Of a stretch of DNA of 64,000 nucleotides, positions 12,190 through 35,438 are shown piece by piece (the first letter of the stretch is position 1; each line of letters starts with the position of its first letter). The stretch is from a virus (lineage: Duplodnaviria > Caudoviricetes). The stretch covers positions 20,861-84,860 of the IMG/VR virus record IMGVR_UViG_3300020576_002081; one strand, written 5' to 3'. The notes under the pieces were generated by a model. The model was given only the letters and a program-made list of their open reading frames with translations. It searched no databases and was not told the origin of the DNA. A program made the position numbers and the translations under genes.

Positions 12190-13692
12190 AAACAAGAATT
12201 AGACAATTAACAGAACAAGAAAAGCGTTCAAGAGGAGAACAACAAATGATTGCAGATTGGCTTAAAATCTTTCCTAAAGGTATTTTAAGCATAGTTTCAG
12301 ATACATTTGATTTATGGAAACTAATTACTGAATATCTACCTGCTAATAAAAAAGCTATAATGGATAGAGGTCACATTGAAGTAATTAAATTACCATTATT
12401 TAATGGAAAACCTACATATTGTGGTAAAGATTGGGCTATTGGTGATACATTAATTAAAATAGGAACAGCTCATCAATTAGGATATTGGAGCGAAAATGAT
12501 GACCCTGACGATAATGTTTATCAAAACCAAAGAACTAAAGAAACTATAAACTTAACTTTATTAAATGATAAAGGTTCTGAGTATTTTAAATATATTCCTG
12601 GTAAATTAGTAATTAGACCTGATAGTGGTGACCCTGTTGATATTATTTGTGGATTAAATATTCCTGAATTTAAAGATGAATCTGAAATTAGAGATTGTTT
12701 TTATAATATAGATGAAAATAAAGAATTTATTTTTAAATATAAAGAACAATTTTATATAGTTAATTCTAATTATACTATTGAAGAACATATCAGAGAGTAT
12801 GGACAAGAACATTGGAATAAATGGAAAACTTTGTTTGATGCTGTTGAAAGATATGGTTATGTAGAAATTTATAAACCTAAATTTTCTATATCTGAACAAA
12901 AAGGTGTAATTGAACTACTTTGGGACATCTTTGGTGGTACTGTAAATGAACAAGGTTATAAAGTATTAGATCCTCATATTGGAGCAATATATGGTGATAG
13001 TATTACACCTGAACGTCAAAAACAAATCTATGAAAGATTAGCAGCTAAAGGTTTTGCAGCTACTAATATTGTATTAGGTGTAGGTAGTTTTACTTATCAA
13101 TATAATACTAGAGATACATTAGGGTTGAGTTTTCACAACTGCGAGCCCCCTTATACAGTAATGTATATTGAATAATTGGAAGAATTGCTGGGAAGTGTTT
13201 AAAATCATTATCAGCAGCCGAGCTTTAGGGAAGACTAAAGAAGGTTCAGAGACTAGGGACACTACGGTGAGCCCACAGCATCCAACTACTTGTAAATCAA
13301 GTAGATGATATAGTCCAATAAAATTTAACATATGGAATAAACTAAGTAACCTATAAAGTGTCGCAGCTAAAGGTGCTTGGTTTGAAGTTGAAACTTGTAG
13401 TAGAGAAGATTGTAATGGTAGTTCTTGTAAAGCTGAAAGAGGTTCTATTTGTAAACATCATTCTAAAAAATCATACAATATCTACAAAGACCCAGTAACA
13501 GATGATGGTACTAAGAAGTCTTTGAAAGGATTGTTAGCTGTATTTAAAGATGATAAACATGATTACTTTGTTCAAACTGAATGTGCTGGAGAATTAGAAA
13601 ATTCAGGAGAATTACAACTAATCTATGAAGACGGTAAGTTTTATAATCAAACAACATTAGAAGAAATAAGAAACAAATTAAATAAAATTTAA
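12186..13692 (+). CDS. nadV: Nicotinamide phosphoribosyltransferase-like protein (candidate Namat), C-terminal fragment; spliced, exons 12186-13125 and 13361-13692 (423 aa)
   Basis: GEQQMIADWL, SIVSDTFD, KLVIRPDSGDP, GAIYGDSIT, LGVGSFTYQYNTRDTLG. Splicing gives LG-F-AAKGAW, then YKDPVTDDGTKKSLKG and LEEIR. Confidence 0.88.
13126..13360 (+). mobile_element. ORF-less group I intron (235 nt, IA2-like) in the Nampt-like C-terminal fragment
   Basis: U13125 at the 5' splice site and G13360 as the terminal G. IGS CTGCGA-G-CCC pairs with the 3' exon TCGCAG (P10) and the 5' exon GGGT (P1). Core: AATTGCTGGGAA, ATCAGCAG, AGGTTCAGAGACTA, GATGATATAGTC. Hairpins CTTTAG/CTAAAG and CTACTTG/CAAGTAG. Confidence 0.92.
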
Positions 13693-18702: not shown

Positions 18703-19430
18703 TATTTACCAAATTTTATTTTACTACGTTTAATTGCACTTATAGCACCTTTTGTAACATTATATAGTTTACCTATTTGTTCAAAAGTAAGTTCTTTTTT
18801 ATCTATTAAGTCTAAAATTTCTAATCTTTGTTGTTCTGTTAGTTTTTGTAACCTTGAAAATTGATTAGTTCTATTAATTAAATGTTTTTCGTTTTCAGAA
18901 ATTACATAATTAGGTACATCATTCCAACTTCTACCAGATTTTATTTCAGATATTGTGGTAATACCTACATTATAAGTTTCTGATATTTTTCTTAAAGGTG
19001 TGTTATAAGCAATTAATTTTTTAATTTCTATTACATTTTTTAATGTAAGTTTAGAATTTCTTTGACCTGCTTTAAACAACTCTATTCTTTTTTTAGACAT
19101 TTTTTCTTTTATAGAATCATCATATTCTAAAGAATCTCCTCCTGTTGTTAAATTCATACCCAAATCATTTACTTTTCTGAATGAATTAAATTGTATTATA
19201 TATTTAGCCTCAAGAGTATTAAGTTCTTTTTTTGTAAAGTTTCCTATTTCTAAAATATCAAATTTATGATTTTCTATACCATACTTTAAAAAACTTCTAT
19301 ATAATAACAACTGATTTTTACAACATTGTAATTTTTTATACCTACTAATTCTTTCATTTACATTTTTAGATTGACCAATGTAAATACTTCCTTTTGGATT
19401 TTCTATTTTATATATTCCTGATTTATTCAT
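18702..19430 (-). CDS. Free-standing GIY-YIG homing endonuclease with NUMOD3/HTH-like C-terminal domains
   Basis: SGIYKIENPKGSIYIGQS....R...Y, LE..YI, G.NLT.GG. Start taken at MNKSG (19430). Confidence 0.88.
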   Translation of the reverse strand: MNKSGIYKIENPKGSIYIGQSKNVNERISRYKKLQCCKNQLLLYRSFLKYGIENHKFDILEIGNFTKKELNTLEAKYIIQFNSFRKVNDLGMNLTTGGDSLEYDDSIKEKMSKKRIELFKAGQRNSKLTLKNVIEIKKLIAYNTPLRKISETYNVGITTISEIKSGRSWNDVPNYVISENEKHLINRTNQFSRLQKLTEQQRLEILDLIDKKELTFEQIGKLYNVTKGAISAIKRSKIKFGK

Positions 19431-19434
19431 ACTG

Positions 19435-19466
19435 CAAAGATACAAAAAGTATATTAGAAATCCAAA
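19435..19466 (-). promoter_or_regulatory. Bacteroidota primary-sigma-type promoter (TTTG-N20-TATCTTTG) for the free-standing endonuclease
   Basis: On the minus strand, TTTG (19466-19463), a 20-nt spacer, TATCTTTG (19442-19435), then ATG 4 nt downstream. Matches the TTTG-N19-21-TAnnTTTG consensus. Confidence 0.7.
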
Positions 19467-21078: not shown

Positions 21079-24000
21079 TTAACAATCTTCAGGGTTTTTA
21101 GTAGTTCCTTCTTCAGGATTTATATCTTCATTTATAAAATTCTCATTTACTTCACCAAATAAATTATTAGCATAACCTTCATATTCTTCATTAGGAATAT
21201 TCTCTTCAAGTACAGGTTTGTTTAATTTTTCAATATTCTCATCTACTTGTTTATCATTATTATACTTTAAATAAGATTTCTCTATATTAATATAAGGATT
21301 TATTTCAAATAAATAGCCTGGTTTACCTAAAATTGTTGTTTTTTCATAAGAAAAATCATCAGTTTTAACATAAATTTCAGGTTTTCTATTAAATTTATCA
21401 TAAACACTTATATATTTAGGAGTATTTAATACTCTACCATCTTCATTATAAGTATACCAAATCATATCGTTTGCTCTACCTGCAGCTTTAACTAAAGCTT
21501 CGTTAGTAACAAGTTTATTAGGTAACGGTTCATTAGATTTAACATTAAACATTTCACCATCAAATTTCTTAGTAAAATCTTTACTATTATTTCTGATAAT
21601 TAAATCTACTAATCTAGCTTCATCAACACCTGATAAAACAACCATATCATCTTTTAGGTTAGATATAAGATTCTTTCTATAATCGTTATAACCTAAATCT
21701 TTAAGTATTTCAGGACTAATAAATTGTGAATAGCTATTTAAACCTCTAAAGAATCCTGTAGTTAAGAATGAATGTTTAATAAAATCAATAGCTAATGGTT
21801 TAGTATTTACATTTCTATATAAAGCTGTAAAAGCTTCAATAATATTATTTTTAACTTGTAAATCTAATCTATTACCTTTAGATTGTATATACCAAATCTT
21901 ATTTTGCTTATCTAATTCAATTTTAATATTTTGAATAAATAAGTTATTTTTAATTTGTTCGTAAGTATTAGCTCCAATCTTAAGATCTTTATTATTAGTA
22001 TCTTTAATATTCTTAATCATTACAGGAAACTTATTTAATAAATGATTGTAATTATCAGGAACATCTTTAAATACATCAGTCATATAATCAGTATAAGTTC
22101 TAATGAAGTTATTCATATATTGTCTTTCTTCAATAGATACTTCATTTAAAGATTTCTTACTTTGATTCTTAATAACAGCATTCTTAATATTCATATAAGC
22201 ATTTGTTGAATAAGGAAAGTAAGATTCAAACCAATCTAAAGCATACTCATGAGTAGACCATGTTTCTTTCAAACTAGGTACTGAGTCAATATTAAAACCT
22301 TTAACAATATTAGAACCGTTAATATTATCAAGAATATCTCTCTTAGCTATAATATCTTCAATATTAGGACCTACTTCTTTGTTTATAGCAAAGAATTTAT
22401 TAATCTTAACAAGTTCTTTAGCTATAGATTCAATATTCTTAAATTGATTTAATACTCTAACTTGATAACTATAATATTCTAATAATTCTAAAGGATTAGC
22501 TTTTTTAAAACTTAATTTATTCTTACCTTCAACAGAATGACCTTTTAATATTTCATCACCATCAATCCTGTAGGTTTCGATAATATTGAGCATATCTTTT
22601 TCATTAATATCAACATGTTCAGGTTTATTACTATTCATAACTTTAATATAACCTTGATAAGTAGGATTATCTTTATCCTCTAACTTATCTAAAGAACTTT
22701 CAGCTAATTTAGTATAAGAATCAATTAAATCATCTATTTGTAAATAACCTTCATTAACATCTTTAACCTTATTCTTATTACCAGCTAATATTTTACTTAA
22801 GTGTTTAACAGCAGGTTGTGAAGTAAACATTAAAGCAGTTTTCATATTAACACCAGATCTAATCATAGTTGCTAATACATCTATAGTATTATTATTAATA
22901 CCAAGTGGTTCAAGTAAAGGATTCTTAATATCATCTAATATAGCAGCCATGATACTAGCTAATTCATCGGCAATAAGTTTCCCATTATCAGTGTATAAAC
23001 CACTGAAGTTTGTTCTGTTAGAACCATTTATATTAACACTTCTAGTAATATCTAAACTACCATCTTCATTATAATCAGTACTATTTAAATCCATTAATAC
23101 ACCATATGAATGACCAGATACGTGTAAAGCAGCTTGTCCTTTCAAAGCAATACCAATGTGATTTCTTTCTTTAAAATCTCTTTGTGTTCTAGAGCTAAAG
23201 AAATTATATTCATCATAATTAGGAAAATAAGTCTTTTGAAAATTCTCAAGTTGAGTAAATCCAGATGGAGAAACTAATAAATGTAAGTTATTTATGCTAG
23301 TCAATAAAGTTAAATAGTTATCAACTATATTGTTATTTCTACTAGCTCTAACATTTTGTTCTTTAACACTAAGCTCTTCAAAATCTTCATAACTTAATTT
23401 TTCTTTAGGACTAACGGTATATGAATATTGATAATATCTACTTTGAGTAGACTTCTTATCAGTACCAGTATAATATTTATAAGGTATTAAATTATTATTT
23501 TCATCCTTAAAGAATTCTTTACCAAAGAAATAAACCTTATCAAAGTCAAAGTCAGCTCCAAATTGAGTTGTTACTTCATAAGGTAATAATATAAAGTTAC
23601 CCATAGTTGGAGGTAAGAATTTAACAACTTTAATAGGCATCATTGAGTGTAAACCTTCAGTAGGAATACGATAAGCTATCAATTGTTTTAACTCATCTGG
23701 TATAGAATCTATATCAATAAGATTACCTTTTTTATCAAAGAATTCTTTAGTCCAAGCAGGCATAGCACATTCAGCATAAGATATCTTACCATCTTCTGGT
23801 TTAATCCATTTAAGATCTGTTTGTAAATCTAAAGCTTCTTGTGGAAGATTATCTTGTTGTTCAGCTAAGTTTTTATATTTAAAACCTAAAGCAGTAGCTT
23901 GTACTGCACTACCACCAACACTAAACTTTTGTTTAATAACATTATTAGTAAATATACTACTAATCATATTTTCAACTTGTGTAGCAATATTACCAGAGTC

Positions 24001-27000
24001 TAAAGCATATTCAAAATTACCGTTAACTATATTTAATATCTCTTCAACATTAATTGTAGCTCCACGTTTAGTAACCATTTCTTTAATAAAATGAGCAAAA
24101 TTAATGTTAGATTTAACATCCATTTTATCTTTAAGTTCTTTAAGAGAATCAGCTAAATTCTCAGCTTCCATATTAAGAATGTTACTTATTATAACATCAC
24201 CTTTAATATCATTATATAATTTAGATTTATCTATTGAACCTAAAATTAACATTTTAAGTTGCCTCATAGAATCATTACCTTCATCCATATGATCTGGATT
24301 ATCTACTTGTACACCGAAGTTATCAGTACTTAAATCTAATTTAAGGTACTCTACATCATCACTAATCGTATTTCTAAAGCCTATAGCAGCTTTAAATGAT
24401 GATTCATGAGCAATCATATCAACACCATCAGTAAGCATTTGTTCACGCTTCTTAGCAAGTAAAGGATTTAAATCACAATATCCTTTAAATAAAGGTAACA
24501 TTGCACATTTAACCTGTTCAAACTTTTGTTTTTCAAATTTAGGATCAAATCTGTTACCAAAGTAATATGGTTTAATACCACCTAATAAACGATGTAATGA
24601 TTCTTTAATATTACCTTTAGAACCATTTTCAATTATATCAAAAGCTTCTTGCATTTCAGAAGTCCACGTACCTCTTGCAACATGTATTCTTTTATAGAAT
24701 TCAGGTGATATATATACTTGAGCATCAGTAACATTTATACCTTCTGAATACTTACCAGCAATTTCTTCTATCTCAGCATCAGTAAAACCTTGAGATTTTA
24801 AAGTATCAACAATAGAATTATAACTTTCAGAAGCTACTTCAACGTCTTTAACAACAACAGTTTTAATAATTTTATTTATAAAATTACCAAATACAGTCAT
24901 TGCTTGACTTTGATAAGTACGCTTTTGTAAATCTTTAGGTTTATATTGAGCAAAATCACCATTAAATATATTACTAAATTCAATATTGTGCAATAAAGTA
25001 TTAAGGCTAAAATTAGCTATAAGATGTTTTATTTGTCTATCTTGAACCTCTTCAGAATTTTCAACTTGCTCTTGTATACCATCAACAAATTTAGTTTCAG
25101 AAGTTAATTGTAAAGATTTATTTTTATATAAACCATTAGGTAATCTTTCAATTAAACCTTTTCTTTCAAATTCTTTAACAGATTCTTTATAATCTTTATT
25201 AAGTTCAGCTTCTAATAATTTCATTATACTTTGTCTAGTATCAAGATTATCAAAAGCTTTAATTATATCATTTTTATTAGCTGAAGATTCAAATATTTCT
25301 TTAGTCATAGCTAATACCTTATTATTAAACCCTAAAGAAAAATAATTAAACTTGTAAGCTTGACCATCAAATAAAGTAGGTATAACATCCCAATCAAGTT
25401 TATCTTCAAGTATCATATTAGATAACTTTTTAAAACTAGATTTAGACATATGATAATGTTCTTCTAATTCATTTAAATTATATTTACCTTCACCTTTATT
25501 AGCTATAATATCATTTTTAACATTATTAGCTTTAGCTATTCTAATAGCTTCAGATAATACAACATTATAGTATTTATTAAAGATAGGTGATTTCCTTAAA
25601 TCTAAGTCAGAACCATCAACAGGATCTATAGCCACATCATATCTACTAGCATCAATTATTACACACATTGTTTTATCAGATGGTGTAATATATATGTATT
25701 TGCTAACAGGCATTGTAGTTTGTTTTTGACTATTAACAGCGGTATTTTGGAATAAAGCTACTTCAGTATTCAAATAATCTTTAGGTGTTAATGAAGTAAA
25801 TCCAACACCTTCTCTAGAACCTCTTTCATCTTTAAAACTATCCATATAACTAACTTTAAAAGACTCTCTATATTCTTTATTATCAAGAGCTTCTAATAAA
25901 TTAGATTTGTAGTAAAAATCATCTTTTTGTAAGTCTGCTTTCCAAAGTTTAAACTTATCTCTATTTTTAATTTTAGCAACAGTCTTACTAATAAACGATG
26001 GTAATTGTATTGTATAAATATTCTTATTCTCACCATTAATAAACGATGAGGTATATTTTTCCATTAAGTTATCTACTTCATAAGCTACTAATTGTGATAA
26101 AGCTTTACGACCTTCTTTCTCTTCATTAATAGGAAAATCAGAAGCATACCATTTCATTAATGTAGTTACTTGATTCTTCCAAACAGATATGTCTGAAGAT
26201 AATATCTTTTTAAGTACTTCAGGAGTATATTCTATACCTACTTTATTTAATAAAGCATTAACAGATTCGTAAGATATGAGCTTACTAAATAATTTATCCC
26301 AAGCTTGTAATACATCTTTAGCTTTAGAAGCATCAATAACCCTATTACCATCTTTATCATAATAACCTACAACATCTTTAGTAGGGTCTGCAACATTAAT
26401 TTCAAACTGATTAAATATTTCACGACCTAAACTACTTCTATTAGCATCAATTATCTTATAACTATAATTACCATTTTCATTATCAAACTTAATAAGTGTA
26501 TAAGCTAATTGTTGTTTACTAAAGTTAGTTTTAAAATCATTAACTAATAAATCAAATTGCTCTTGTGACATTTCAGAAGGTTTATTAGATAACTTATCTA
26601 TAATTTGATTTAAGACAGGTCTGTTTATAGCAAGCTCCTTAAGAACATTCAATTGTTCAGACAATTCATATTTATCAATAAGATTACGTTCTATGTAATA
26701 ATATAAATCTGAAAATTCATGGTATTGAGTAACACCCAAATTATCTTTAACAACATTACCATCTTTAATAATAGGTATTGATGATAAGAATAATTTAAGT
26801 CTTGTACTAGCAGAACTTAAACCACTAATACTAGTCCATTCACCTAAACCTTTAACAGTTTTAGATTCTAAACTATAAGTTTCAATATCTTCAACAGATT
26901 CTTGAGTTAAGTCTGTTTTAAATTCTAAAACACCTTCCTCTTGAACTTCAATCTCCTCTTTAATAGTATTATAACCTAAAACTAATTTAGATTTTATATT

Positions 27001-30000
27001 TCTATATTCAAGATATTTCTTAACTTCATTCCATATATCAGGAAAGTTAACAATAATTCTAGCACATTCTTTTTCATCAGCTTCTGAAAGTTTACCAGAA
27101 ACTAATTCTTTTTTGTAAGAATCTTGTATATTTTTAAGAATAGTAAAAGAATCTACCTTTTGTTCATTAAAAATAGCTTGTTGATATTCAGCCAGAAATT
27201 TGTTCCCTATTGATTTAACAATCTTAACCTTAGTACTAACACCTAATTTACTATTAAGTGCTTTAGAATAAGCGTATTCGTTAAATAAAGACCTATTTAC
27301 AACACTATTAGACTTACTATTTAAAGTAGCTAATCTACCAGCATTAATATTTGAAAATAAATCATCTATGGTTGTGGTATCATTTGATTTAAATATTCTA
27401 TAAAAGTTGAATATTTTATTAAAAAAATCTTTAATCTTGTTTCCAAGTTTAACCCAAAAGTTACTATCATTTCTATCATAAGCGTATTTTGCAAAATCAT
27501 CAGCTAACTTCTCTTCATAATAAAGATAAAGAAGTTGCTCACTACTATATTTATTTTTTAAACTTTGTTTTAAGTTATTAATTTCTAATTCAGTTGGTTG
27601 AGGATATTTAGAAACAGCTTCATTAATTATATCTTGACGTTGTTTAATAGTCAATAGATTTCTAAACACACCATGAAAAGCTTCGTGATATGCAGTTTTC
27701 ATACCTGCTCCCTCGAATAGGTATATAGTACTATCTCTAAATAAACCAAAAGAATCAATCATTACATCTTTTAATTGATATATACTATCAACATCTGATA
27801 ATTTTAATTGAGGTAATCTACTAGATAACCACTTTTGAAATTTAACTTTATTTAATAAAGTGTTATCATGATTGATAGATAAAGCATTATCATCATTAAT
27901 AGGAGTGTCTAAATCAATAGATTTTAATTTATCTTTAACCTTACTGTTTAAATCAGTATCATTAATAGATGGTTGTAATTGATCTAACTCTATATTATCT
28001 TGGGCAGAAGCTTCATTTAATTTTTTAGATATTGATTGAGTATATTCTATATAAGGTTGGACAAAGTATTCCCCTTCAAATGTAGTAACATTTGTTAATA
28101 AGGATTTACGATTTTTCATATCTTCTTGGAAAGAAGGTTTGTTAATATCGTTTATTGAAATATTTTGTTTAACACCTTTCAATCCTTCTAAGAAAGATTT
28201 ATTTTTAAACTTATTGTTTTGAAATTCATCAAGTGTTACTAAACCATTAGCATTCCAAAGTTTAATTACACCACCTTCTTTTTTAATTGTAATAGGTACT
28301 CCTCTTTTAAATTCAGTACTATATACATAAGGTTGTAATCTTCTTATTATATCATTAGGTTCATTATCATTATTTGATGTAGATAAAACTTCACTTATCT
28401 TATCTAAAGTTTCTTTATTTAAAACATTAGGATAAACAGGTATTGGACTCCAATCACCATTTAAATCTTTTACTAACTGAAATACTCTACCTTTTTTAGA
28501 ATCAAACTTATTTAACTTAGCTAATCTTAAGTTAATAGTATTAATAGTTCCTTCATCTAAATCAGTATTATCAGGTAATGTTAATTTACCTAATGAATTA
28601 GAATAAACAAATACTAATTGATTTTCAATCTTATCTTTAGGTCTAGCAGTTTCTAATACATCAAATACAGGATCTATTCTACCTTGTTTATCTAATTTAG
28701 TATATAGATTACCAGTACCTTTATCAAGTACTTTTTCTACAACTTCTTTATTAGAATTAAGTTCTTTTATAATATATTTTCTATAAGTTATTAAACCATC
28801 TCTAAGTCTTTTAGATAAATCAGGATCAGATGATTTAGTAGATATTTCATGAGGTTGTTGAACAAATCCTAATAAATCATTGTCTTTATAAATACCAATA
28901 TGTTTACCATCATAATCTTTAAGTCCTTCATATAAAGAAGAAATCTCAGGAGATACTTCTACGAATTTAAAATTAATAGTATCACCAATTTTAATATCAT
29001 TTATACTCTTAATATTAATATTAGAAGTATTATCTAATTTAGGAAAACCTTCTTGACGTTTAAACTTAAAGAAATCATTGTCAAAATAATGCTCAAATAA
29101 GTGCATCATAGCAACATTATTCTTTCTATTTATACCTTTAGATTCAACTTGATTATCGGTAATAGGATGTTTTTGACTTACTTCATCATCAATAACTAAT
29201 TGATTATTTTCTGATACAACGTCTTGTTCATGTTCATTATCAACATTAATATCAGATTGTTGTATGTTATTATTTTCTAAAGTTGCTAATTCTGCATCGT
29301 ATTTAGCATTGATTTTATCATACTGTCTTGATTTACCAATTTGACTATCAAATTTTTGTTTTTGTTGTTCTAGATAAGTATCTGCATCTTCTTTGTTATT
29401 AAACACTCTTGTTCTTAATATAGGAGCTTTAGATTGTTTACCATCTTTCATTTCCCCATACTCAAGAACTCTGTCTATTATAGTATAACCTTCCCCTTCA
29501 TTTTCTGCAATATTTGCGTCAAAATTATCAGCAGTTTGAACATCTTGAACAATTACGAGCATTCCGTCATTATACTCTTGACCAACTTTAAAGGAATTAG
29601 GATTGTCTTTGTTTATAGGTGTTCCTTTAGTAGATTTTTTTACAGATTCTTTTTCTCTCTCCGTAAAAGATTTTAACTCTTCTTGTCTTCTTCTTTCTAT
29701 ATCAGCTTTTTTACCTTCCACATCTTTCAATGCACTACTAGACTCCTCTTCACTTTCTTTTAAACTACCTTCGCCATAAAATGATTTATTGTCATAAATA
29801 ACATAGAATGGAGATACTTTTTCGTTAGCAATAATATGATTAACAATTTTAACCCCTTTTACTTCTGGATTTGATTTCTGAAAATCATTAAACAGGGAGA
29901 TAATAGCAGGGTTTTCATTTGCTCTTTCAGTTCCATTATATTCTTTTGCAGGGTCATTCCCAATATAAGAACCGCTGTCTGGCTTATTGAACTTGTATCC

Positions 30001-33000
30001 TTTAGATTTTAATTCTTCATAAATTTCTTTCTCTGTTTTGTTAGTATCAATTACAACAAAATCAGAATCTTTAACCTCTCCCTTAATTGGATTACCATAT
30101 CTCTTTTGCAAGAATGGAGTTGTATCAGTAGATACTGCCAGCCCATCACCAAATTGACTTACTTGATTTTTGCCTCTTTGGAAATTACCAAAATCAAAAT
30201 CTTTAACATCTACTTTTGTGTGGTGAAATACTGGCACTACATCTTTCAATGCACTACCAGATACTCCCGAAGTTTCTCCTAAAGCAGCTAATTCTGCATC
30301 ATCAATTTGTTTTTCTAATTCAGGAGTTAATCTGTTAATTTCTTTTAGTGCATCTTTTGCTTGTTGTTTAGTAAATTCTCCTTTTTTTACTTTATCAATA
30401 TATTCTGCATCATATTTAGCATTGATTTCAGAAATTCTTTGTTTTTTTAAATCTAATAATTGAGTTAATCCCTCTTTACTAGTATTAATTCCTTCTTTTT
30501 TAAGGATATTTATAGCTTTAGTAAAATCATTTATTGTTATATAATAACCATTACCCGATGGGTTTGGTTTAAAAATATTTTTTAATGATTGATATTTTTC
30601 AGGAAATGCTTCTGTTAATAAATCTATTAATGTTTTGAATATTTGTATTCTATTACCAGTTAAAGATTTTCCTTCCTTTCTATCTGTTATAGCACCTTCT
30701 TCATTATAAGATGTTAATTTTGTATCATTAGCATATCCAGAAAAGGCTTGCTCTGGTGTATTTTTAAATAAATCTAACTTTCTTCTTCTTTCTATATCAG
30801 CTTTTTTAGCTTCTATGCTTGTTTCAGTAGTAGCTGTAGATTCTAATGCTTGTAGTTCTGCATCATATTTAGCATTGATTTCATTTAAGAAATTACCATT
30901 AACCTGATAATTAATTTCCCCATTTAATCTTGCTTGTAAAAAATTTCTTAAAGCACTAACTGAATTACCAATCGAATGTACATAACCTCTGCTAGCTAAT
31001 GTTTGTTGTAATCTATCAACATTCCATCCTTTTTCACTAGCTTTATTTATAATTAATTCTATTTCATCAATTTCATCTTGAGTTAATTCTGTATTAGAAC
31101 CTTCAGGATTATATTTAACAAAAGCATTAGCTCTTCTTCCTTCATATTTACTTAATTCCTCTTGTCTTCTTCTTTTTATATCAGCTTTTTTAGATTCTAA
31201 ATTTTTATTTAATAATTCGCTAAATGTAGGTGGCGCAACTTCTTTATCTTGAAACTCTTTTAATTTAGCTTCGATATGTGTTTTATTATTAGCATAAAAC
31301 TCTTGTGTTTCAGCATCATTAGTTACAGTACCATTTTTAATAGCTTCAGCAAAAGTAGTTATAATTTTATCTAAATTTTTAGCTTTATCAATTAAACTCT
31401 TTCTTTGATTATCATTAACTAACGGATCATTTTTAAGTTTATTATGTAAAGAATTAAATTCATCTATTGTCATGCTTTCTAAAGCAACATCAACATCTGA
31501 TTTAACTTCATCTAAAACTTGTTTATCTTTTTGCTTTTTAACAGCTTCTTTTTCAGCATTTTGAACGTCTTTAACAATCTTTTCAGACTTAATTTTTTGT
31601 TCAATAAACTCATTTAAAGCTTTAATTTGCTCTGATGTATTTTGTAAAGAATTATACTTTTCTTTAGATTGTTCTAATAATTTATTTAAACCATCAATTT
31701 GTTTTTGATATTTAGCAACTTGTATTTGATTTTGAGGTAAATCATTGAATATAACAGAATTATATTTACTTAACTCATTATTTAAATCTTGAATTTTTTC
31801 TTTATAAAATACTTGTTTAGATACTTCTTGAAATGAAGCATTGAACATCTTATCAAGATATTCTTCATAACCTTCTCTACCTTCAAGTGCTTTAACAGAA
31901 GCAAATTGACTAACAACATTCATTGTATCATTATATAAACCTAATAATTGTTTAGCTTTATTCTTCTGTTCAGTTTTATATTTATTCTCATCAAGGATAT
32001 CAAGTTGATTAATTTTACTAGCTGTTAAACTAGCATTATCAATCTTATCATTAAGCAATTCTAAACCAACATCACCAAGTTTTAAAAATGGTATTGCAGC
32101 TCTTGTAAAGATTTTATTATCTAAATAATCATGTAAAACTTTATCATCATTTAATGCTGATAAGTCTTTTAATTTACTTTCTGTAATTTCATTAATGAAA
32201 TCTTCAGTAGCTTCTTTAAGTTTAGTAGGGTTAATAGATGTTTGAACACCATTTTCATCCCTATCATATATTTCATTATCTCCACTAAATCCTTCAAAGT
32301 TATCTTTGATTAATTGTGAGATAGTACCAAAATTCTCATTACGATATTCTTGATCTGCTTTTCTCTGTTTAAATGTACCTACAGCTCCACCAAATGAACC
32401 TAATACTAAATCCAACACAACTGATTTAAGACCCTCTGTTGTATTCATAGTAGTAAGAAATTCATTAGCCACACCTTTTATAAAACCTAAATCGGTCTTA
32501 CCAGTTGCTTTAGCTACTTCATAATTTTCAATAGATGTTTGACCACCTCCCTCAACACCTTCTGGTAAAGCTGATCCAAATATTGATTTAGAATATTGTT
32601 TAAGAGCATCTTTTTTAATAACAGGATTCTCCATTAACTTACCAGAAGCATCTTTAAATTCATCCAATATTGATTTATCAGCTTTAAATCTACCTAATAA
32701 ATTCTTATTCATAATAGCATTAGGTAATACTAATAAAGCTATGTTAGCATAAAAAGTTGCTTTACATGCTTCAGCAATTTGTTCAGGACTAGCTCCTTCA
32801 GCTTTAAGTCTATCTGCTACACCTTTAGCTTCAGCTAATGCTTCTACAGAACTATTTAAAAGCGTTAAGGTGCCTAATTCAATATCTTTAGATAACTCAA
32901 CACCAACTCCTAATTTAGATATCTTAGAAGCCAAATTTAAGCCTTTTAAAGCAGCTCCTGGAAAAATCAGACCTAATAAATAACCAACACCATCAGCTCC

Positions 33001-33495
33001 TTCACTTGACCAAAACGATGTACTAGCTATATTGTCTAATATACCACCTTTACCAGACTTATAAGAATGATAAACAGGTATTTCATTTTTAATGGAATCG
33101 TCTAATGATTCTAAGGTATTTAACCAAGCATTATCTAAAGCTTGATCTAAAGTAACTCCTTTACCACCTTTAGATATATTATCTAATGACCATTCTCCTA
33201 AAGAGTATAAATAAGCTGGAGTTTTACCTATTTCAACAGCAGCTTTAGAAGCTGCTCTTAAAACACCTAAACCAATTTGACCTAAACCAGATTGCTTCTC
33301 ACCTCTTAAATATTGGTAATCACCTGATTTTACAAATTCAGAATTTAAATTTTTATCATCATATTCACTATTACCAAAAGTTGTATTTCCAAGAGTTTCT
33401 AATGTCGAACCTTTTTTATCTAATTCGTTAGTTCCAATATTAAATTTTTTTGAATTTAAAAGTCTTTCTGATAGTGGTTTGTTGTTATCTGGCAT
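21079..33495 (-). CDS. Giant virion RNA polymerase polyprotein (~4,138 aa), crAss-like two-barrel RNAP
   Basis: YRIPTEG...GADFDFDK catalytic motif (23559-23536), TDAQVYISP, QVKCAM, zincin YHEAFH (27690-27670). Start taken at MPDNNK (33495). Confidence 0.9.
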   Translation of the reverse strand: MPDNNKPLSERLLNSKKFNIGTNELDKKGSTLETLGNTTFGNSEYDDKNLNSEFVKSGDYQYLRGEKQSGLGQIGLGVLRAASKAAVEIGKTPAYLYSLGEWSLDNISKGGKGVTLDQALDNAWLNTLESLDDSIKNEIPVYHSYKSGKGGILDNIASTSFWSSEGADGVGYLLGLIFPGAALKGLNLASKISKLGVGVELSKDIELGTLTLLNSSVEALAEAKGVADRLKAEGASPEQIAEACKATFYANIALLVLPNAIMNKNLLGRFKADKSILDEFKDASGKLMENPVIKKDALKQYSKSIFGSALPEGVEGGGQTSIENYEVAKATGKTDLGFIKGVANEFLTTMNTTEGLKSVVLDLVLGSFGGAVGTFKQRKADQEYRNENFGTISQLIKDNFEGFSGDNEIYDRDENGVQTSINPTKLKEATEDFINEITESKLKDLSALNDDKVLHDYLDNKIFTRAAIPFLKLGDVGLELLNDKIDNASLTASKINQLDILDENKYKTEQKNKAKQLLGLYNDTMNVVSQFASVKALEGREGYEEYLDKMFNASFQEVSKQVFYKEKIQDLNNELSKYNSVIFNDLPQNQIQVAKYQKQIDGLNKLLEQSKEKYNSLQNTSEQIKALNEFIEQKIKSEKIVKDVQNAEKEAVKKQKDKQVLDEVKSDVDVALESMTIDEFNSLHNKLKNDPLVNDNQRKSLIDKAKNLDKIITTFAEAIKNGTVTNDAETQEFYANNKTHIEAKLKEFQDKEVAPPTFSELLNKNLESKKADIKRRRQEELSKYEGRRANAFVKYNPEGSNTELTQDEIDEIELIINKASEKGWNVDRLQQTLASRGYVHSIGNSVSALRNFLQARLNGEINYQVNGNFLNEINAKYDAELQALESTATTETSIEAKKADIERRRKLDLFKNTPEQAFSGYANDTKLTSYNEEGAITDRKEGKSLTGNRIQIFKTLIDLLTEAFPEKYQSLKNIFKPNPSGNGYYITINDFTKAINILKKEGINTSKEGLTQLLDLKKQRISEINAKYDAEYIDKVKKGEFTKQQAKDALKEINRLTPELEKQIDDAELAALGETSGVSGSALKDVVPVFHHTKVDVKDFDFGNFQRGKNQVSQFGDGLAVSTDTTPFLQKRYGNPIKGEVKDSDFVVIDTNKTEKEIYEELKSKGYKFNKPDSGSYIGNDPAKEYNGTERANENPAIISLFNDFQKSNPEVKGVKIVNHIIANEKVSPFYVIYDNKSFYGEGSLKESEEESSSALKDVEGKKADIERRRQEELKSFTEREKESVKKSTKGTPINKDNPNSFKVGQEYNDGMLVIVQDVQTADNFDANIAENEGEGYTIIDRVLEYGEMKDGKQSKAPILRTRVFNNKEDADTYLEQQKQKFDSQIGKSRQYDKINAKYDAELATLENNNIQQSDINVDNEHEQDVVSENNQLVIDDEVSQKHPITDNQVESKGINRKNNVAMMHLFEHYFDNDFFKFKRQEGFPKLDNTSNINIKSINDIKIGDTINFKFVEVSPEISSLYEGLKDYDGKHIGIYKDNDLLGFVQQPHEISTKSSDPDLSKRLRDGLITYRKYIIKELNSNKEVVEKVLDKGTGNLYTKLDKQGRIDPVFDVLETARPKDKIENQLVFVYSNSLGKLTLPDNTDLDEGTINTINLRLAKLNKFDSKKGRVFQLVKDLNGDWSPIPVYPNVLNKETLDKISEVLSTSNNDNEPNDIIRRLQPYVYSTEFKRGVPITIKKEGGVIKLWNANGLVTLDEFQNNKFKNKSFLEGLKGVKQNISINDINKPSFQEDMKNRKSLLTNVTTFEGEYFVQPYIEYTQSISKKLNEASAQDNIELDQLQPSINDTDLNSKVKDKLKSIDLDTPINDDNALSINHDNTLLNKVKFQKWLSSRLPQLKLSDVDSIYQLKDVMIDSFGLFRDSTIYLFEGAGMKTAYHEAFHGVFRNLLTIKQRQDIINEAVSKYPQPTELEINNLKQSLKNKYSSEQLLYLYYEEKLADDFAKYAYDRNDSNFWVKLGNKIKDFFNKIFNFYRIFKSNDTTTIDDLFSNINAGRLATLNSKSNSVVNRSLFNEYAYSKALNSKLGVSTKVKIVKSIGNKFLAEYQQAIFNEQKVDSFTILKNIQDSYKKELVSGKLSEADEKECARIIVNFPDIWNEVKKYLEYRNIKSKLVLGYNTIKEEIEVQEEGVLEFKTDLTQESVEDIETYSLESKTVKGLGEWTSISGLSSASTRLKLFLSSIPIIKDGNVVKDNLGVTQYHEFSDLYYYIERNLIDKYELSEQLNVLKELAINRPVLNQIIDKLSNKPSEMSQEQFDLLVNDFKTNFSKQQLAYTLIKFDNENGNYSYKIIDANRSSLGREIFNQFEINVADPTKDVVGYYDKDGNRVIDASKAKDVLQAWDKLFSKLISYESVNALLNKVGIEYTPEVLKKILSSDISVWKNQVTTLMKWYASDFPINEEKEGRKALSQLVAYEVDNLMEKYTSSFINGENKNIYTIQLPSFISKTVAKIKNRDKFKLWKADLQKDDFYYKSNLLEALDNKEYRESFKVSYMDSFKDERGSREGVGFTSLTPKDYLNTEVALFQNTAVNSQKQTTMPVSKYIYITPSDKTMCVIIDASRYDVAIDPVDGSDLDLRKSPIFNKYYNVVLSEAIRIAKANNVKNDIIANKGEGKYNLNELEEHYHMSKSSFKKLSNMILEDKLDWDVIPTLFDGQAYKFNYFSLGFNNKVLAMTKEIFESSANKNDIIKAFDNLDTRQSIMKLLEAELNKDYKESVKEFERKGLIERLPNGLYKNKSLQLTSETKFVDGIQEQVENSEEVQDRQIKHLIANFSLNTLLHNIEFSNIFNGDFAQYKPKDLQKRTYQSQAMTVFGNFINKIIKTVVVKDVEVASESYNSIVDTLKSQGFTDAEIEEIAGKYSEGINVTDAQVYISPEFYKRIHVARGTWTSEMQEAFDIIENGSKGNIKESLHRLLGGIKPYYFGNRFDPKFEKQKFEQVKCAMLPLFKGYCDLNPLLAKKREQMLTDGVDMIAHESSFKAAIGFRNTISDDVEYLKLDLSTDNFGVQVDNPDHMDEGNDSMRQLKMLILGSIDKSKLYNDIKGDVIISNILNMEAENLADSLKELKDKMDVKSNINFAHFIKEMVTKRGATINVEEILNIVNGNFEYALDSGNIATQVENMISSIFTNNVIKQKFSVGGSAVQATALGFKYKNLAEQQDNLPQEALDLQTDLKWIKPEDGKISYAECAMPAWTKEFFDKKGNLIDIDSIPDELKQLIAYRIPTEGLHSMMPIKVVKFLPPTMGNFILLPYEVTTQFGADFDFDKVYFFGKEFFKDENNNLIPYKYYTGTDKKSTQSRYYQYSYTVSPKEKLSYEDFEELSVKEQNVRASRNNNIVDNYLTLLTSINNLHLLVSPSGFTQLENFQKTYFPNYDEYNFFSSRTQRDFKERNHIGIALKGQAALHVSGHSYGVLMDLNSTDYNEDGSLDITRSVNINGSNRTNFSGLYTDNGKLIADELASIMAAILDDIKNPLLEPLGINNNTIDVLATMIRSGVNMKTALMFTSQPAVKHLSKILAGNKNKVKDVNEGYLQIDDLIDSYTKLAESSLDKLEDKDNPTYQGYIKVMNSNKPEHVDINEKDMLNIIETYRIDGDEILKGHSVEGKNKLSFKKANPLELLEYYSYQVRVLNQFKNIESIAKELVKINKFFAINKEVGPNIEDIIAKRDILDNINGSNIVKGFNIDSVPSLKETWSTHEYALDWFESYFPYSTNAYMNIKNAVIKNQSKKSLNEVSIEERQYMNNFIRTYTDYMTDVFKDVPDNYNHLLNKFPVMIKNIKDTNNKDLKIGANTYEQIKNNLFIQNIKIELDKQNKIWYIQSKGNRLDLQVKNNIIEAFTALYRNVNTKPLAIDFIKHSFLTTGFFRGLNSYSQFISPEILKDLGYNDYRKNLISNLKDDMVVLSGVDEARLVDLIIRNNSKDFTKKFDGEMFNVKSNEPLPNKLVTNEALVKAAGRANDMIWYTYNEDGRVLNTPKYISVYDKFNRKPEIYVKTDDFSYEKTTILGKPGYLFEINPYINIEKSYLKYNNDKQVDENIEKLNKPVLEENIPNEEYEGYANNLFGEVNENFINEDINPEEGTTKNPEDC
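29280..31195 (-). repeat. Interspersed direct repeats bounding variable cassettes in the RNAP polyprotein
   Basis: Repeat A (encodes KKADIERRR) at 29681-29713, 30781-30808 and 31160-31192. Repeat B (encodes INAKYDAE) at 29290-29316, 30403-30430 and 30856-30883. Repeat C (19 nt, ACATCTTTCAATGCACTAC) at 29720-29738 and 30239-30257. Confidence 0.9.
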
Positions 33496-33496
33496 A

Positions 33497-35353
33497 TTAG
33501 TCTTGTAAGTCTTTAAACGATGTGTTGTCTGATGCAATATTGTATAAATCTGTTGAACCAACTTCAGTACTGTAATAAAGTTGATTTAAATATGTAAGCA
33601 TACTAGCTTGAGTTCTAAATGATATAGGTTCTTTAATTTTAGAGTTTTTACCTGGAGTTAACAAATAACCTGATTTCTTTTCACCAGTATTAGGGTTTGT
33701 AATACCAAATGTTTCTAAAGTACCCATATTAGGTATTTCAGTTTTATCTATCATTTCAACATCTTTATTTGCTAAATCTGGAGTTCCTTTAATTAAACCA
33801 GTTTCCCAACTAGCTCCTTTTAATCCTATAGACGCTACTTTATTATGGAAACCATCATCAACTACAGCTCTTGGTCTAACCATAATTGGTTGAATAGTAC
33901 CATCTTTTTTCTTAATATAACCATCTCTATTCATATTACCTTTAGGAGTATGTCTAAAGTTATTTAAAACAACTTCATCACCTTCTTTTAATACAGGTTT
34001 TTCAGCTAATGGTTGATCTGGTTGTTCAACATCCATTAAATCATAATTATTCCAATTTCTCTTAAGTTTTTCACTTTCAACTTTAGATATTGGTGCAGAC
34101 ATTTGTTCATCCGCAATTCTAGTTTTACTGAACGCATTATATTTATTTATAATTTCATCAAAGTTTTTATGATTAACTTCTTTATTATAACCAATAGATT
34201 TAGCTATTTCTCCAACTACTTTACCTAATTGCTTAGCTTTATCAGTAGCGTCTTTATAACCAACTATTGTTGAAACTCTTCTACCATTAACATCTACTAC
34301 ATCATAAATAGGTTCTTTCTCAGAAACATTTTTCCAATCAACATTTAATTTAGTTGAACCATCTGAATTTTTAGTTTCAGATAATATACCTGAATCTTTC
34401 AATTCATGAAAATCTTTATTATCAGCAGTTAAATCTAATGTTTGACTTTCTAAAGGACTACCATATAAAGAATTCTTTTGATTTTCTTCATCATGTAATG
34501 TTTTCCAAGCACGATTAACTTCTTCTGAATAACCTTTTTTACCTTTACTAAATATTTGTTCAGATGCAGAACTATACAATAAATTAACAGCTGCTTCATA
34601 AATATCTTTTTGACTAGCTTTAGGATAGTCAAATTTAACTTTTTCAATAAAGTCTTGTCCTTCAGGACTATCTAAGAATCCATCAGCTTTTTGGTAAGCT
34701 TCTTTTAAAACTTTATTACTGCTAATTGTTTCAACACCATTTTTATAACCTCTAGTTATACCATCTTTACCAACAATAACATTATCAATATCTGAACCAT
34801 CAGCAGCAATCTTACCCATTAATTTTTTAGCAGCTTCAGCATGATTAGCAGCAGACTTAATACCTGTAGACCTATAAGGTGTAAATTCACCATCTTTATA
34901 AGATGAATTAAATTTAGATATATTATCATTCCAATAACCATATTTATTTTCAGAAGATAACTTTCTTAAATTTTTCAAATCATCATTATAATAAGCATAT
35001 GAAGTTTCAAGTTCATTTCTTAAAGGATCATTTCTATAAGTTTTAATTAGATTATCTAACTTTAATTTATTAGAATAATCTGTTGGATTCTTAAGCCAGT
35101 TTTGAGCTAATTCATCTAATTGAGAATTATATTGATCTAATAATTCTTTCTTTTTAAAATTATGTTTATCAATAGCATTAACTTTAAGAATCTCATCTTT
35201 AGCTGATGATATATCAGAACCTGCTTGTTTATATTTATCAGAGTAATCTTTAGCTAAATTAGTTAAAGCCTCTAATGGTTTACCCACGTATTGTTCAGGT
35301 ACGAATGTACTAACATATCTTTGTGGTTGGGGTTGATCGAAACGATTAGCCAT
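33497..35353 (-). CDS. Virion cargo/ejection protein
   Basis: MANRFDQPQPQRYVSTFVP N-terminus and position upstream of the RNAP gene, as in crAss-like cargo clusters. Confidence 0.7.
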   Translation of the reverse strand: MANRFDQPQPQRYVSTFVPEQYVGKPLEALTNLAKDYSDKYKQAGSDISSAKDEILKVNAIDKHNFKKKELLDQYNSQLDELAQNWLKNPTDYSNKLKLDNLIKTYRNDPLRNELETSYAYYNDDLKNLRKLSSENKYGYWNDNISKFNSSYKDGEFTPYRSTGIKSAANHAEAAKKLMGKIAADGSDIDNVIVGKDGITRGYKNGVETISSNKVLKEAYQKADGFLDSPEGQDFIEKVKFDYPKASQKDIYEAAVNLLYSSASEQIFSKGKKGYSEEVNRAWKTLHDEENQKNSLYGSPLESQTLDLTADNKDFHELKDSGILSETKNSDGSTKLNVDWKNVSEKEPIYDVVDVNGRRVSTIVGYKDATDKAKQLGKVVGEIAKSIGYNKEVNHKNFDEIINKYNAFSKTRIADEQMSAPISKVESEKLKRNWNNYDLMDVEQPDQPLAEKPVLKEGDEVVLNNFRHTPKGNMNRDGYIKKKDGTIQPIMVRPRAVVDDGFHNKVASIGLKGASWETGLIKGTPDLANKDVEMIDKTEIPNMGTLETFGITNPNTGEKKSGYLLTPGKNSKIKEPISFRTQASMLTYLNQLYYSTEVGSTDLYNIASDNTSFKDLQD

Positions 35354-35438
35354 AGTGTTTATTTTAAACAAATAAAGCTTTTAACATTGCTGAAAAAAGC
35401 TTTACAAAGTTAAGAATTATTTTGTTAAGTTGTATATA

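Follow-up and report, generated by a model that had tools for sequence, protein, structure and literature searches.

Why should one giant phage protein enclose unrelated domains between copies of the same two short peptides? The question is raised by an open reading frame (ORF) in the window (the whole stretch of DNA analysed here, 64 kb) with three copies each of motif A (KKADI[EK]RRR) and motif B (INAKYDAE). A preliminary description of this DNA had proposed that these brackets are recombination anchors, which allow three unrelated domains to be gained, lost and shuffled in frame like the cassettes of an integron. The features of the locus, listed along the protein, are as follows.

21079..33561, minus strand: giant ORF, 4160 aa from a TTG (ORF list, translation)
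31165..31191, minus strand: bracket A1, KKADIKRRR, aa 791-799 (motif search); here the N-terminal stalk helix predicted for cassette 1 starts
30880..31164, minus strand: cassette 1 (C1) interior, aa 800-894; small alpha/beta domain, function unassigned
30856..30879, minus strand: bracket B1, INAKYDAE, aa 895-902 (motif search)
30781..30807, minus strand: bracket A2, KKADIERRR, aa 919-927; 16 aa past B1, with a Thr/Ser-rich linker between
30427..30780, minus strand: cassette 2 (C2) interior, aa 928-1045; rare, with a clear homologue in P0010 (contig L001)
30403..30426, minus strand: bracket B2, INAKYDAE, aa 1046-1053 (motif search)
30256..30402, minus strand: B2 extension, aa 1054-1102; helical, ends in a partial B motif, DDAELAAL (30280-30303)
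30238..30255, minus strand: SALKDV linker repeat, copy 1, aa 1103-1108
29737..30237, minus strand: X-core, the fourth module, aa 1109-1275; inserted in the B-to-A linker
29719..29736, minus strand: SALKDV linker repeat, copy 2, aa 1276-1281
29686..29712, minus strand: bracket A3, KKADIERRR, aa 1284-1292 (motif search)
29314..29685, minus strand: cassette 3 (C3) interior, aa 1293-1416; beta-rich domain, function unassigned
29290..29313, minus strand: bracket B3, INAKYDAE, aa 1417-1424 (motif search); backbone resumes at aa 1427
27673-27687, minus strand: HEAFH motif of the giant ORF, aa 1959-1963
23539-23553, minus strand: DFDFD motif of the giant ORF, aa 3337-3341
18702-19445: GIY-YIG homing endonuclease gene, near the giant gene

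The real start of the giant gene is probably the ATG at 33495, giving 4138 aa, because the database copy of the protein (P0002) has that length; the identical 4138-aa protein is on record in two contigs. The gene lies on the same strand as those for TerL, portal and MCP, and DFDFD has the form of the DFDxD catalytic motif of crAss-like virion RNA polymerase (RNAP) polyproteins of the phi14:2 gp65-gp66-gp67 type. The motif and the gene context identify the ORF as a crAss-like virion polyprotein; both the motif and the polyprotein fusion have been described in crAss-like phages (Drobysheva preprint; Yutin 2021). No Pfam family matched the giant protein, in which HEAFH marks a possible zincin-like metallopeptidase. 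Searches of the GenBank phage collection returned no match to the protein of the cassette region (aa 780-1430, tblastn) or to the DNA of the giant gene (megablast).

The brackets are conserved in DNA as well as in peptide. Repeat A is identical at 28/28 nt between 29686-29713 and 30781-30808 and at 32/33 nt between 29681-29713 and 31160-31192; repeat B is identical at 28/28 nt between 30403-30430 and 30856-30883, with 25/27 nt shared with 29290-29316. Each motif pattern has three matches in the window, with none expected from 100 dinucleotide-preserving shuffles, and the repeats are thus present just as first described. The conservation of synonymous positions needs a qualification. Some of the identity is plain codon bias in a genome of 28% G+C, the probability of drawing the same codon being 0.47-0.85 per residue and about 0.03-0.05 per whole motif. 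Codon bias does not account, however, for two choices made in all three B copies: ATC, a rare codon that serves 5% of Ile residues, and GCA, which serves 20% of Ala residues. The bracket peptides are kept with different codons in phage contigs whose G+C content ranges from 25 to 48%, and the primary constraint is therefore on the protein; the DNA identity that permits recombination may have arisen as a by-product and not under selection as an anchor. The exact motif B 24-mer of the window makes up 29 of the 120 INAKYDAE sites in IMG/VR. The brackets adjoin linkers rich in Thr, Ser and Pro. We found no published description of them in the literature.

The sequences between the brackets share no evident similarity, as the preliminary description had stated: the best pairwise BLASTP match among module interiors has E = 0.45. 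Comparison of the cassettes with Pfam, PHROGs, PDB and BFVD gave nothing significant. Thirteen other giant proteins carry homologues of C1, in nearly every case immediately flanked by A and B, and homologues of C3 are present in 11 other giant proteins; none of the latter was found among proteins of 79-254 aa. The count of three segments has to be revised to four modules, since a further one, with a different bracket, had been missed in the 230-aa linker stretch between B2 and A3. This stretch begins with the B2 extension, which is 91-93% identical in three other proteins (P0003, P0041 and P0051) and there, too, directly follows a B motif. The X-core that comes next lies between two identical copies of a 19-bp direct repeat (29720-29738 and 30239-30257), which encodes SALKDV, and has homologues in 28 of the 57 giant proteins retrieved. 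SALKDV belongs to the conserved B-to-A linker and is uninterrupted in other proteins; the duplication is therefore explained by recombination between linker copies.

The X-core is possibly a diverged ADP-ribosyltransferase (ART) of the ART-PolyVal type. Its ESM Atlas feature score to clusters carrying PF18760 (ART-PolyVal) was 0.91; hmmscan found no PF18760 match in any of 10 homologues, and hhalign aligned 17 columns only, around VxHxT..F..F, with a probability of 1.3%. We looked for the H-Y-D pattern of these enzymes (His in strand 1, Tyr in strand 2 and Asp in strand 5). The conserved HHT and YVIYD would suit the His and the Asp, and the expected Tyr position is occupied by N or A.

The number of modules at this one backbone site is 0, 1 or 4. 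The closest backbone relatives (L138 and L139; 42-50% aa identity), which are two separate contig records, contain no A or B motif and are colinear with the window protein once aa 800-1424 are omitted. A single cassette occupies this site in P0010 (32-37% aa identity). Cassette number thus varies among relatives, as had been anticipated.

Modules have also moved between backbones. Five unrelated phage backbones each contain one module of the window as an isolated block of 77-99.8% nucleotide identity. In L001, the contig that encodes P0010, 414 nt comprising A2, the C2 interior and B2 are 99.76% identical, against 66-76% for the rest of the gene. The other four contigs carry a block from A1 through C1 to A2 (L128, 97.6%), a C1 block (L129, 90.3%), the X-core (L130, 98.2%) and C3 from A3 to B3 (L131, 76.9%); outside these blocks only short motif sequences align, apart from one further short match in L128. 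Of the ten block ends, nine are no more than 11 nt away from a motif (P = 4e-6 by a rough binomial estimate). These identity blocks support in-frame exchange of whole cassettes, with the motifs marking their ends, and in this respect the shuffling initially proposed is borne out. Shuffling may not be fully free, because some neighbouring modules travel together: the C1-to-X region forms a single alignment with P0026 and P0032 (roughly 37% identical), as does the stretch from X to C3 with P0009, P0011 and P0022 (roughly 45-47%).

Using the brackets as queries to catalogue the intervening domains, as the preliminary description had suggested, uncovered a large pool. A profile search of 1.84 billion representative proteins (E <= 1e-3, 50%-identity clusters) matched at least 186 protein clusters. 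Motif A was followed by motif B as the next motif downstream in 67 of 72 cases, enclosing interiors of 27-327 aa. The 123 distinct interiors fell into 62 BLASTP-unrelated families, nearly all lacking a Pfam match. Together, the array and its exchanged domains in other phages point to a shared pool of mostly unassigned, probably injected, phage proteins.

The antiparallel helical stalk proposed for the two peptides agrees with prediction. The AlphaFold2 (AF2) model of C1 (pLDDT 84.5, pTM 0.70) is mainly helical with two short strands and has its A1-side helix at model residues 6-31. A second model, in which the C3 part has a pLDDT of 77-91, is beta-rich in C3 and places the A3-side helix at model residues 237-273. 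For both models the best structural matches are antiparallel two-helix hairpins, aligned from the first to the last helix with middling Z scores of about 8-9 (for example 5izs_A, 68 residues at an rmsd of 1.8 Å). Pairing also fits the charge of the helices, basic for A and acidic for B. The two models suggest that A and B pack against each other in opposite directions to form a stalk, which carries the domain at its tip. Both also align with the antiparallel two-helix stalks of the SMC hinge, dynein and Ndc80/Nuf2, at Z scores of about 7.4-8.2 that show no more than a common arrangement; these have no sequence relation to the cassettes, and the likeness is a structural analogy only.

Our preferred reading, to which we assign a probability of roughly three in four, is that the region is a hot spot with four modules, namely hairpin cassettes and a SALKDV-flanked ART-like domain, that are swapped by homologous recombination at shared brackets. 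Residues from about 791 to 1426 would be an insertion hot spot in a flexible linker, where four self-contained modules have accumulated. In the three hairpin cassettes, a basic helix (IEAKKADIERRRQEEL) is predicted to pair antiparallel with an acidic helix (INAKYDAELAALE), presenting an unrelated domain of 95-124 aa at the tip; since the predicted hairpin brings the ends of the cassette together, the linker could gain or lose a cassette with the rest of the protein undisturbed. The fourth module, the ART-like domain, sits in the B-to-A linker between the SALKDV repeats. Because many giant proteins of phages have kept the bracket peptides, co-occurring phages share 24-50-nt stretches of near-identical, in-frame DNA, and general homologous recombination across these could swap, add or delete whole modules in frame. 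The high depth of the motif words in four public metagenome runs, given below, fits such sharing; contigs of these runs do not bridge the repeats, and the candidate joints have flanks of 21-35 nt, a length that the repeats can yield by themselves. The record, which is 93% complete, encodes no tyrosine or serine recombinase, RecT or ERF, and one AAA_24 (Sak4-type) ORF; the earlier view that no dedicated recombinase is involved is consistent with this content as regards site-specific enzymes. From what is known of crAss-like phages, we infer that the array region is packaged and ejected with the RNAP and that the cassette domains act on the host as effectors.

A broader proposal, which we hold tentatively and rate somewhat below an even chance, is that the A/B hairpin and SALKDV form a community-wide connector standard, through which unrelated phages re-sort a shared pool of injected domains in frame, selected by the arms race with host defences. 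Such a pool would comprise dozens of small injected domains in crAss-like virion RNAP polyproteins and other giant virion proteins. The hairpin might also be a handle for display, unfolding or cleavage during ejection.

Could the brackets instead be chiefly processing sites? A putative zincin-like protease (HEAFH, aa 1959) or a head protease would cut at or beside A and B and release the domains after packaging or ejection, so that bracket conservation would reflect protease specificity and bracket recombination would be a side effect. Iyer et al. (2017, PMC5512222) proposed that zincin-like metallopeptidase domains split polyvalent proteins into their functional parts, and crAss-like polyproteins are expected to be cleaved (Drobysheva et al. 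preprint). The Thr/Ser/Pro-rich linkers beside the motifs are in keeping with cutting there, and HExxH occurs in 72 of 115 bracket-carrying proteins of at least 2000 aa; it is a short motif, however, and absent from the other 43. A structural clasp explains two distinct motifs with predicted mutual pairing more readily than a single protease specificity does, and we consider this explanation unlikely. It is in any case compatible with cassette exchange, which is established independently. The idea that the modules are diverged tandem duplicates of one domain, which the preliminary description had set against its own reading, is hardly credible despite the tandem array with shared ends: the interiors lack pairwise similarity, the predicted secondary structures of C1 and C3 differ, and for each interior other proteins contain separate homologues, at up to 97-100% identity. 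We rejected it within the sensitivity of BLASTP and AF2.

The exact 19-bp repeat around the X-core and the nearby GIY-YIG gene might suggest autonomous in-frame elements moving by transposition or homing, with the SALKDV and bracket repeats as target-site duplications or element ends. However, Pfam detected no Hint/splicing, nuclease or transposase domain in the four modules of the window, whose cassettes are 95-170 aa long, or in 36 A-to-B cassettes, and hence neither of the marks of inteins and homing elements (Hint or an embedded endonuclease). Moreover, 19 bp is long for a target-site duplication, and recombination between copies of the elsewhere uninterrupted linker accounts for it; mobility of this kind is very improbable. 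More improbable still is an assembly artefact, by which short repeats of co-occurring phages would have produced chimeric metagenome contigs. Contigs assembled at k=31 from X15, the best covered of four public metagenome runs, do break at the motifs; across the four runs the summed depth in motif bins was mostly about 5-35 times that of neighbouring bins, and several of the contigs compared come from similar wastewater or freshwater samples. Reads, and the larger k values in common use for metagenome assembly, nevertheless exceed the 24-50 nt of the identical stretches; the 4138-aa protein is on record in two contigs, the empty site was assembled twice, and cassette homologues of 40-90% identity keep the brackets in dozens of independent assemblies (JGI, ENA, Logan).

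If the brackets mark exchangeable injected domains, a simple sequence signature would open a large catalogue of candidate host-takeover and anti-defence proteins; even in our small sample they number 62 unrelated families or more, which hardly ever have a known fold or family and are beyond the reach of homology searches. It would also indicate that giant virion proteins evolve by plugging in modules, each with its two ends brought together on a helical stalk, and would offer a natural rule for designing cargo insertions in proteins that phages deliver. A practical point for metagenomics is that short-k assemblies of crAss-like phages are broken or tangled at the shared brackets.

Integrons, to which the array had initially been likened, also hold arrays of exchangeable units from a shared pool. 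Every defining integron feature is nonetheless absent: the record has no PF00589 match for an IntI tyrosine recombinase, attC and attI sites are lacking, the modules belong in frame to a single ORF rather than being separate promoterless genes in a promoter-led array, and the repeats are coding brackets rather than imperfect inverted repeats. Exchange here would proceed by general homologous recombination.

Among known systems, the nearest are polyvalent proteins and the recombination guided by motifs that is reported for polymorphic toxins and tail fibres. Polymorphic toxin systems are treated by Zhang et al. (2012, PMC3482391). Polyvalent proteins are giant proteins of phages and conjugative elements made of unrelated domains, among which a zincin-like protease and ARTs are frequent; their genes adjoin those of the virion, and the proteins are presumed to be delivered together with the DNA (Iyer, Burroughs, Anand, de Souza, Aravind 2017, PMC5512222). 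That paper notes mosaicism and possible cassette recombination for one kinase locus; we found in it no bracket helices, hairpin scaffold, linker motifs or breakpoints, and the strings 'linker' and 'shuffl' have no occurrences. The build is the same here, with four unrelated modules and protease-like and RNAP regions in one phage polypeptide. Pfam detected none of the polyvalent signature families (ART-PolyVal, Kinase-PolyVal, LPDs, PBECR) in the window protein; the cassette-sharing proteins P0054, P0005 and P0013 have Kinase-PolyVal, ART-PolyVal, LPD3, PBECR2, LPD23 and NADAR among their families.

In the T-even tail fibre proteins gp37/gp38, 'His boxes', conserved in-frame motifs, are said to be crossover points between phages, reportedly from work by Tetart et al. 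in 1998. The likeness lies in short in-frame motifs that flank variable segments and in module swapping between phages. Tail fibres, however, swap receptor-binding segments of one fold family, whereas the array carries unrelated folds on a common predicted coiled-coil stalk, inside a protein that is presumably packaged.

In polymorphic toxins, a short peptide marks the border between constant and variable parts (VENN in CdiA, PxxxxDPxGL in Rhs), and the DNA of this motif is thought to guide recombination with other cassettes, which brings many unrelated domains into the same slot; the Rhs motif is a cleavage site too. These toxins have one C-terminal slot, an immunity gene per toxin and silent cassettes downstream, whereas the modules of the window are internal (aa 791-1426 of 4160), have no immunity genes or small ORFs between them, occupy several slots bracketed on both sides, and are exchanged between phages. 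As a connector standard, the brackets would do internally, and in several slots, what the diversification of polymorphic toxins does at one.

The window belongs to an 84,860-bp IMG/VR record with an estimated completeness of 93%. It has a G+C content of 28% and carries phage genes for the large terminase, portal, major head protein and a large virion structural protein. The array lies in a giant ORF, in which motif A, KKADI(E/K)RRR, opens and motif B, INAKYDAE, closes each cassette:

21079-33561, minus strand: giant ORF, 4160 aa if counted from the TTG at 33561
aa 800-894: cassette C1, between motif copies A1 (aa 791) and B1 (aa 895)
aa 928-1045: cassette C2, between A2 (aa 919) and B2 (aa 1046)
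aa 1109-1275: X-core, in the linker from B2 to A3
aa 1293-1416: cassette C3, between A3 (aa 1284) and B3 (aa 1417)

The start codon of the giant gene is probably the ATG at 33495, 22 codons after the TTG, because the database copy of the protein (P0002) starts there and has 4138 aa. Read from the TTG, the gene overlaps the upstream ORF (33497-35371); read from the ATG, it leaves an overlap of 3 nt only. With HEAFH at aa 1959 and DFDFD further along at aa 3337, the protein appears to follow the plan described for crAss-like phages, whose single polyprotein joins a zincin-like protein and the virion RNA polymerase to a third protein (Drobysheva et al. preprint; Yutin et al. 2021). The giant protein matched no Pfam family, and nothing in the GenBank phage collection matched the protein of the cassette region (aa 780-1430, tblastn) or the DNA of the giant gene (megablast). 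No backbone relative of the protein was found in IMG/VR.

Each repeat pattern had three matches in the window and none in 100 shuffles, and the repeat identities reported in the preliminary description were reproduced (28/28, 32/33, 28/28 and 25/27 nt). The interiors were, as it had claimed, mutually unrelated (best pairwise E = 0.45); a reading of them as tandem duplicates was rejected. We considered the possibility that codon bias accounts for the conservation of the boundaries at synonymous positions. Much of it is indeed explained in this way: the probability of drawing the same codon is 0.47-0.85 per residue, and bias is adequate for most of the DNA identity of motif A. As the whole cause of the identity of motif B, codon bias was rejected, since two rare codons, ATC (5% of Ile codons) and GCA (20% of Ala codons), stand in all three copies. 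Codon bias also fails to explain the Ala codons at 120 INAKYDAE sites in IMG/VR, where GCT or GCC is nearly always used for the first Ala and mostly GCA or GCC for the second.

The three A/B cassettes were correctly recognized at the outset, but a fourth module between B2 and A3 had been missed. It occupies the 230 aa from B2 to A3; its first part prolongs B2 as a helix and terminates in a partial B motif, DDAELAAL. The X-core of ≈167 aa comes next, and an exact direct repeat of 19 bp, which codes for SALKDV, flanks it on both sides. In other proteins, the linker without an insert reads ...AELA(T/A)LEETSGVSG-SALKDV-EGKKADIERRR, and two giant proteins from the database search (P0003 and P0004) have domains other than the X-core between two SALKDV copies. 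With the X-core and these other domains placed between SALKDV copies, the B-to-A linker constitutes a slot of a second kind.

Two metagenome contigs, L138 and L139, were the closest backbone relatives found; their amino acid identity in the backbone is 42-50%, and they have neither motif A nor motif B. In the alignment, query residues 57-802 match subject residues 47-839, and query residues 1427-1842 match subject residues 838-1252; the window protein minus aa 800-1424 aligns straight across an acidic low-complexity linker in the two contigs. At that same site, a single cassette is present in another giant protein, P0010 (32-37% amino acid identity). With no cassette in L138 and L139, one in P0010 and four modules in the window, a single backbone position holds a variable number of modules (0, 1 or 4). 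The preliminary description had named invariance among relatives as the outcome that would speak against shuffling, and the comparison favors shuffling.

A protein search with aa 780-1430 gave 57 giant proteins of 2.3-7.1 thousand aa. Most match one module only and a few match two or three adjacent ones. Some modules are 86-98% identical, and the remainder of these module-sharing proteins is 22-37% identical or unalignable. Five loci were compared at the DNA level.

DNA blocks shared between the window and five loci (positions in the window protein)
L001: C2, aa 916-1053; 414 nt, 99.76% nt identity
L128: A1 through C1 to A2, aa 790-926; 412 nt, 97.6% nt identity
L129: C1, aa 787-903; 350 nt, 90.3% nt identity
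L130: X, aa 1087-1268; 546 nt, 98.2% nt identity
L131 (43% G+C): C3, aa 1283-1425; 429 nt, 76.9% nt identity

Outside its block, the L001 gene is just 66-76% identical to that of the window; in L128-L131, only short motif sequences align, together with one further short match in L128. A motif lies within 11 nt of nine of the ten block ends, a criterion that ≈20% of the positions in the region satisfy (binomial P = 4e-6, a rough, post hoc value). After INAKYDAE, L001 resembles the B3 tail of the window (40/41 nt) and not the B2 tail, which is what a crossover within motif B would leave. These isolated blocks bear out the proposal of in-frame shuffling with the repeats as boundaries, and show that cassettes move between backbones with their ends at the brackets.

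Longer stretches are also shared. One ≈37%-identical alignment covers the C1-to-X region in P0026 and P0032, and one of ≈45-47% identity covers X to C3 in P0009, P0011 and P0022; in the DNA alignment for P0009 (L123), the C3 slot holds an unrelated interior. Some module neighborhoods seem to have been kept over long divergence, and particular modules may move or function as a set. Cassette 3 is common to the giant proteins of L131 and of L133, which are unrelated phages; both have a ferritin-like gene (PF00210) directly 3' of the giant gene (L131:7726-8019 and L133:8910-9198).

Four public metagenome runs, drawn from different studies, were compared with the window: a river run, an activated-sludge run, one that is unlabelled and one whose organism label is a code. 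All are k=31 contigs, none of which spans a repeat. In the best-covered run, X15, the contigs stop at the motifs, and the depth was 975 at 29610-29740 and about 28 alongside. Motif bins mostly had about 5 to 35 times the summed depth of adjacent bins, and this was so in all four runs. The high depth and the contig ends show that the bracket words are common to many co-occurring sequences. The C3, X-core and C2 interiors were found at 98.6-100% identity in three further studies. The listed joints are not proof of deletion variants, because k=31 contigs bridge no repeat and the sides of the joints are 21-35 nt, a size that repeated motifs themselves can produce. Zero depth of the backbone in X5 and X9 and of cassette 1 in X3, X5 and X9 is not readable as absence.

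The brackets are widespread. More than 117 IMG/VR contigs (25-48% G+C) match a degenerate DNA pattern for INAKYDAE, always within long ORFs, and the exact motif B 24-mer of the window occurs at 29 of the 120 sites. The consensus order is a Thr/Ser/Pro-rich linker, (D/E)IEAKKADIERRRQEEL, the domain, (K/E)INAKYDAELAALE and a Thr/Pro/Gln/Glu-rich linker. Among 369 long ORFs, the next motif downstream of A is B in 67 of 72 cases, interiors are mostly 50-145 aa long, and B-to-A gaps are of two sizes, 10-27 aa and about 200-230 aa. When 36 bracketed cassettes were combined into a profile and searched against 1.84 billion representative proteins, 186 clusters (50% identity) were hit at E ≤ 1e-3; the bracket signal is so short that this number is a lower bound. 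The 199 collected proteins have 123 distinct interiors, which sort into 62 BLASTP-unrelated families; the median length is 103 aa. Pfam gave only chance-level rows for the 36 cassettes. Carriers include true polyvalent proteins, such as P0054 (PBECR2, LPD3, ART-PolyVal and Kinase-PolyVal), and among the 115 carriers of ≥2000 aa, DFDxD is present in 47 and HExxH in 72.

The AlphaFold2 model of cassette 1, made from a 12-row alignment, was confident (pLDDT 84.5, pTM 0.70) and runs from a long N-terminal helix (A1) through a small α/β domain to a C-terminal helix, also long, from B1 onward. The model of X and C3 was weaker overall (pLDDT 68.7), with a good C3 part (pLDDT 77-91) in which helix A3 is followed by a beta-rich domain and helix B3. 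The best structural matches of both models (VIA-align) were antiparallel two-helix hairpins or stalks from first to last helix, such as 5izs_A (68 residues, rmsd 1.8 Å), the SMC hinge, the dynein stalk and Ndc80/Nuf2; these are generic helical matches, taken as geometry and not homology. The prediction is thus an antiparallel pairing of A and B that carries the domain at its tip, in line with the stalk envisaged in the preliminary description. The A helix is basic and the B helix acidic, which fits such packing. Foldseek against PDB and BFVD gave no match at E ≤ 0.001 and no fold match for any interior, and a sequence profile search of PDB gave none; BFVD rows naming ART or polyvalent proteins were weak (E about 0.15-2.2) and have no evidential value.

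The X-core is the commonest module (28 of the 57 giant proteins) and adjoins ART-PolyVal clusters in a language-model search of the ESM Atlas (score 0.91). Two conserved stretches of the X-core, VxHHT...F..F and YVIYD, would match the His and Asp in the H-Y-D active-site pattern of ART-PolyVal (Iyer et al. 2017, PMC5512222). HMMER (Pfam) gave no confirming match and hhalign against the ART-PolyVal region of P0054 aligned 17 columns with a probability of 1.3%, so the X-core is no more than a candidate ART-PolyVal-type domain. Searched individually against Pfam and PHROGs, the modules gave chance-level rows only. C2 had no informative homologues; C3 had no usable match in the ESM Atlas and no stand-alone homologues among proteins of 79-254 aa.

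Three other groups of genes in the window were noted:

2609-3859, plus strand: ribonucleotide reductase ORF, covering just positions 270-697 of a 701-position profile
8382-9374, 10574-11452 and 12186-13175, plus strand: NAD salvage genes, ribose-phosphate pyrophosphokinase, then nicotinamide phosphoribosyltransferase
18702-19445, minus strand: GIY-YIG-type homing endonuclease match (247 aa, PHROG E = 1e-19)

The nicotinamide phosphoribosyltransferase appears split, its two ORFs corresponding to profile positions 11-271 and 312-407 of 500; an intron or homing element could lie in the ≈730 nt between them. The ribonucleotide reductase gene may likewise be split. The stop of the giant gene lies about 1.6 kb upstream of the GIY-YIG ORF, which has a large gene of unknown function on either side.

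No paper describing the brackets was found, and the string AKYDAEL was absent from the literature searched; among the crAss-like and polyvalent-protein literature, the brackets are not described in the Drobysheva preprint, Yutin et al. 2021 or Iyer et al. 2017. The array had been likened to an integron, which it is not, and an intein or homing reading was rejected. The absence of a dedicated recombinase was confirmed in so far as the 93%-complete record holds no tyrosine or serine recombinase; RecT and ERF were not found either. The only recombination-type protein of the families searched (AAA_24, RecT, ERF, tyrosine/serine recombinases) is an AAA_24 (Sak4-type, RecA-core) ORF outside the window (G000:C1:16701-17273, E = 9e-26). 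The most economical mechanism would be general homologous recombination over the 24-50 nt of in-frame DNA that are shared, and the bracket peptides would be kept because they form the stalk, possibly also for processing. Motif-guided recombination has been reported for polymorphic toxins and for T-even tail fibres, and is a near principle to the bracket exchange proposed here. Among the nearest known principles to the array itself are the polyvalent proteins (Iyer et al. 2017, PMC5512222).
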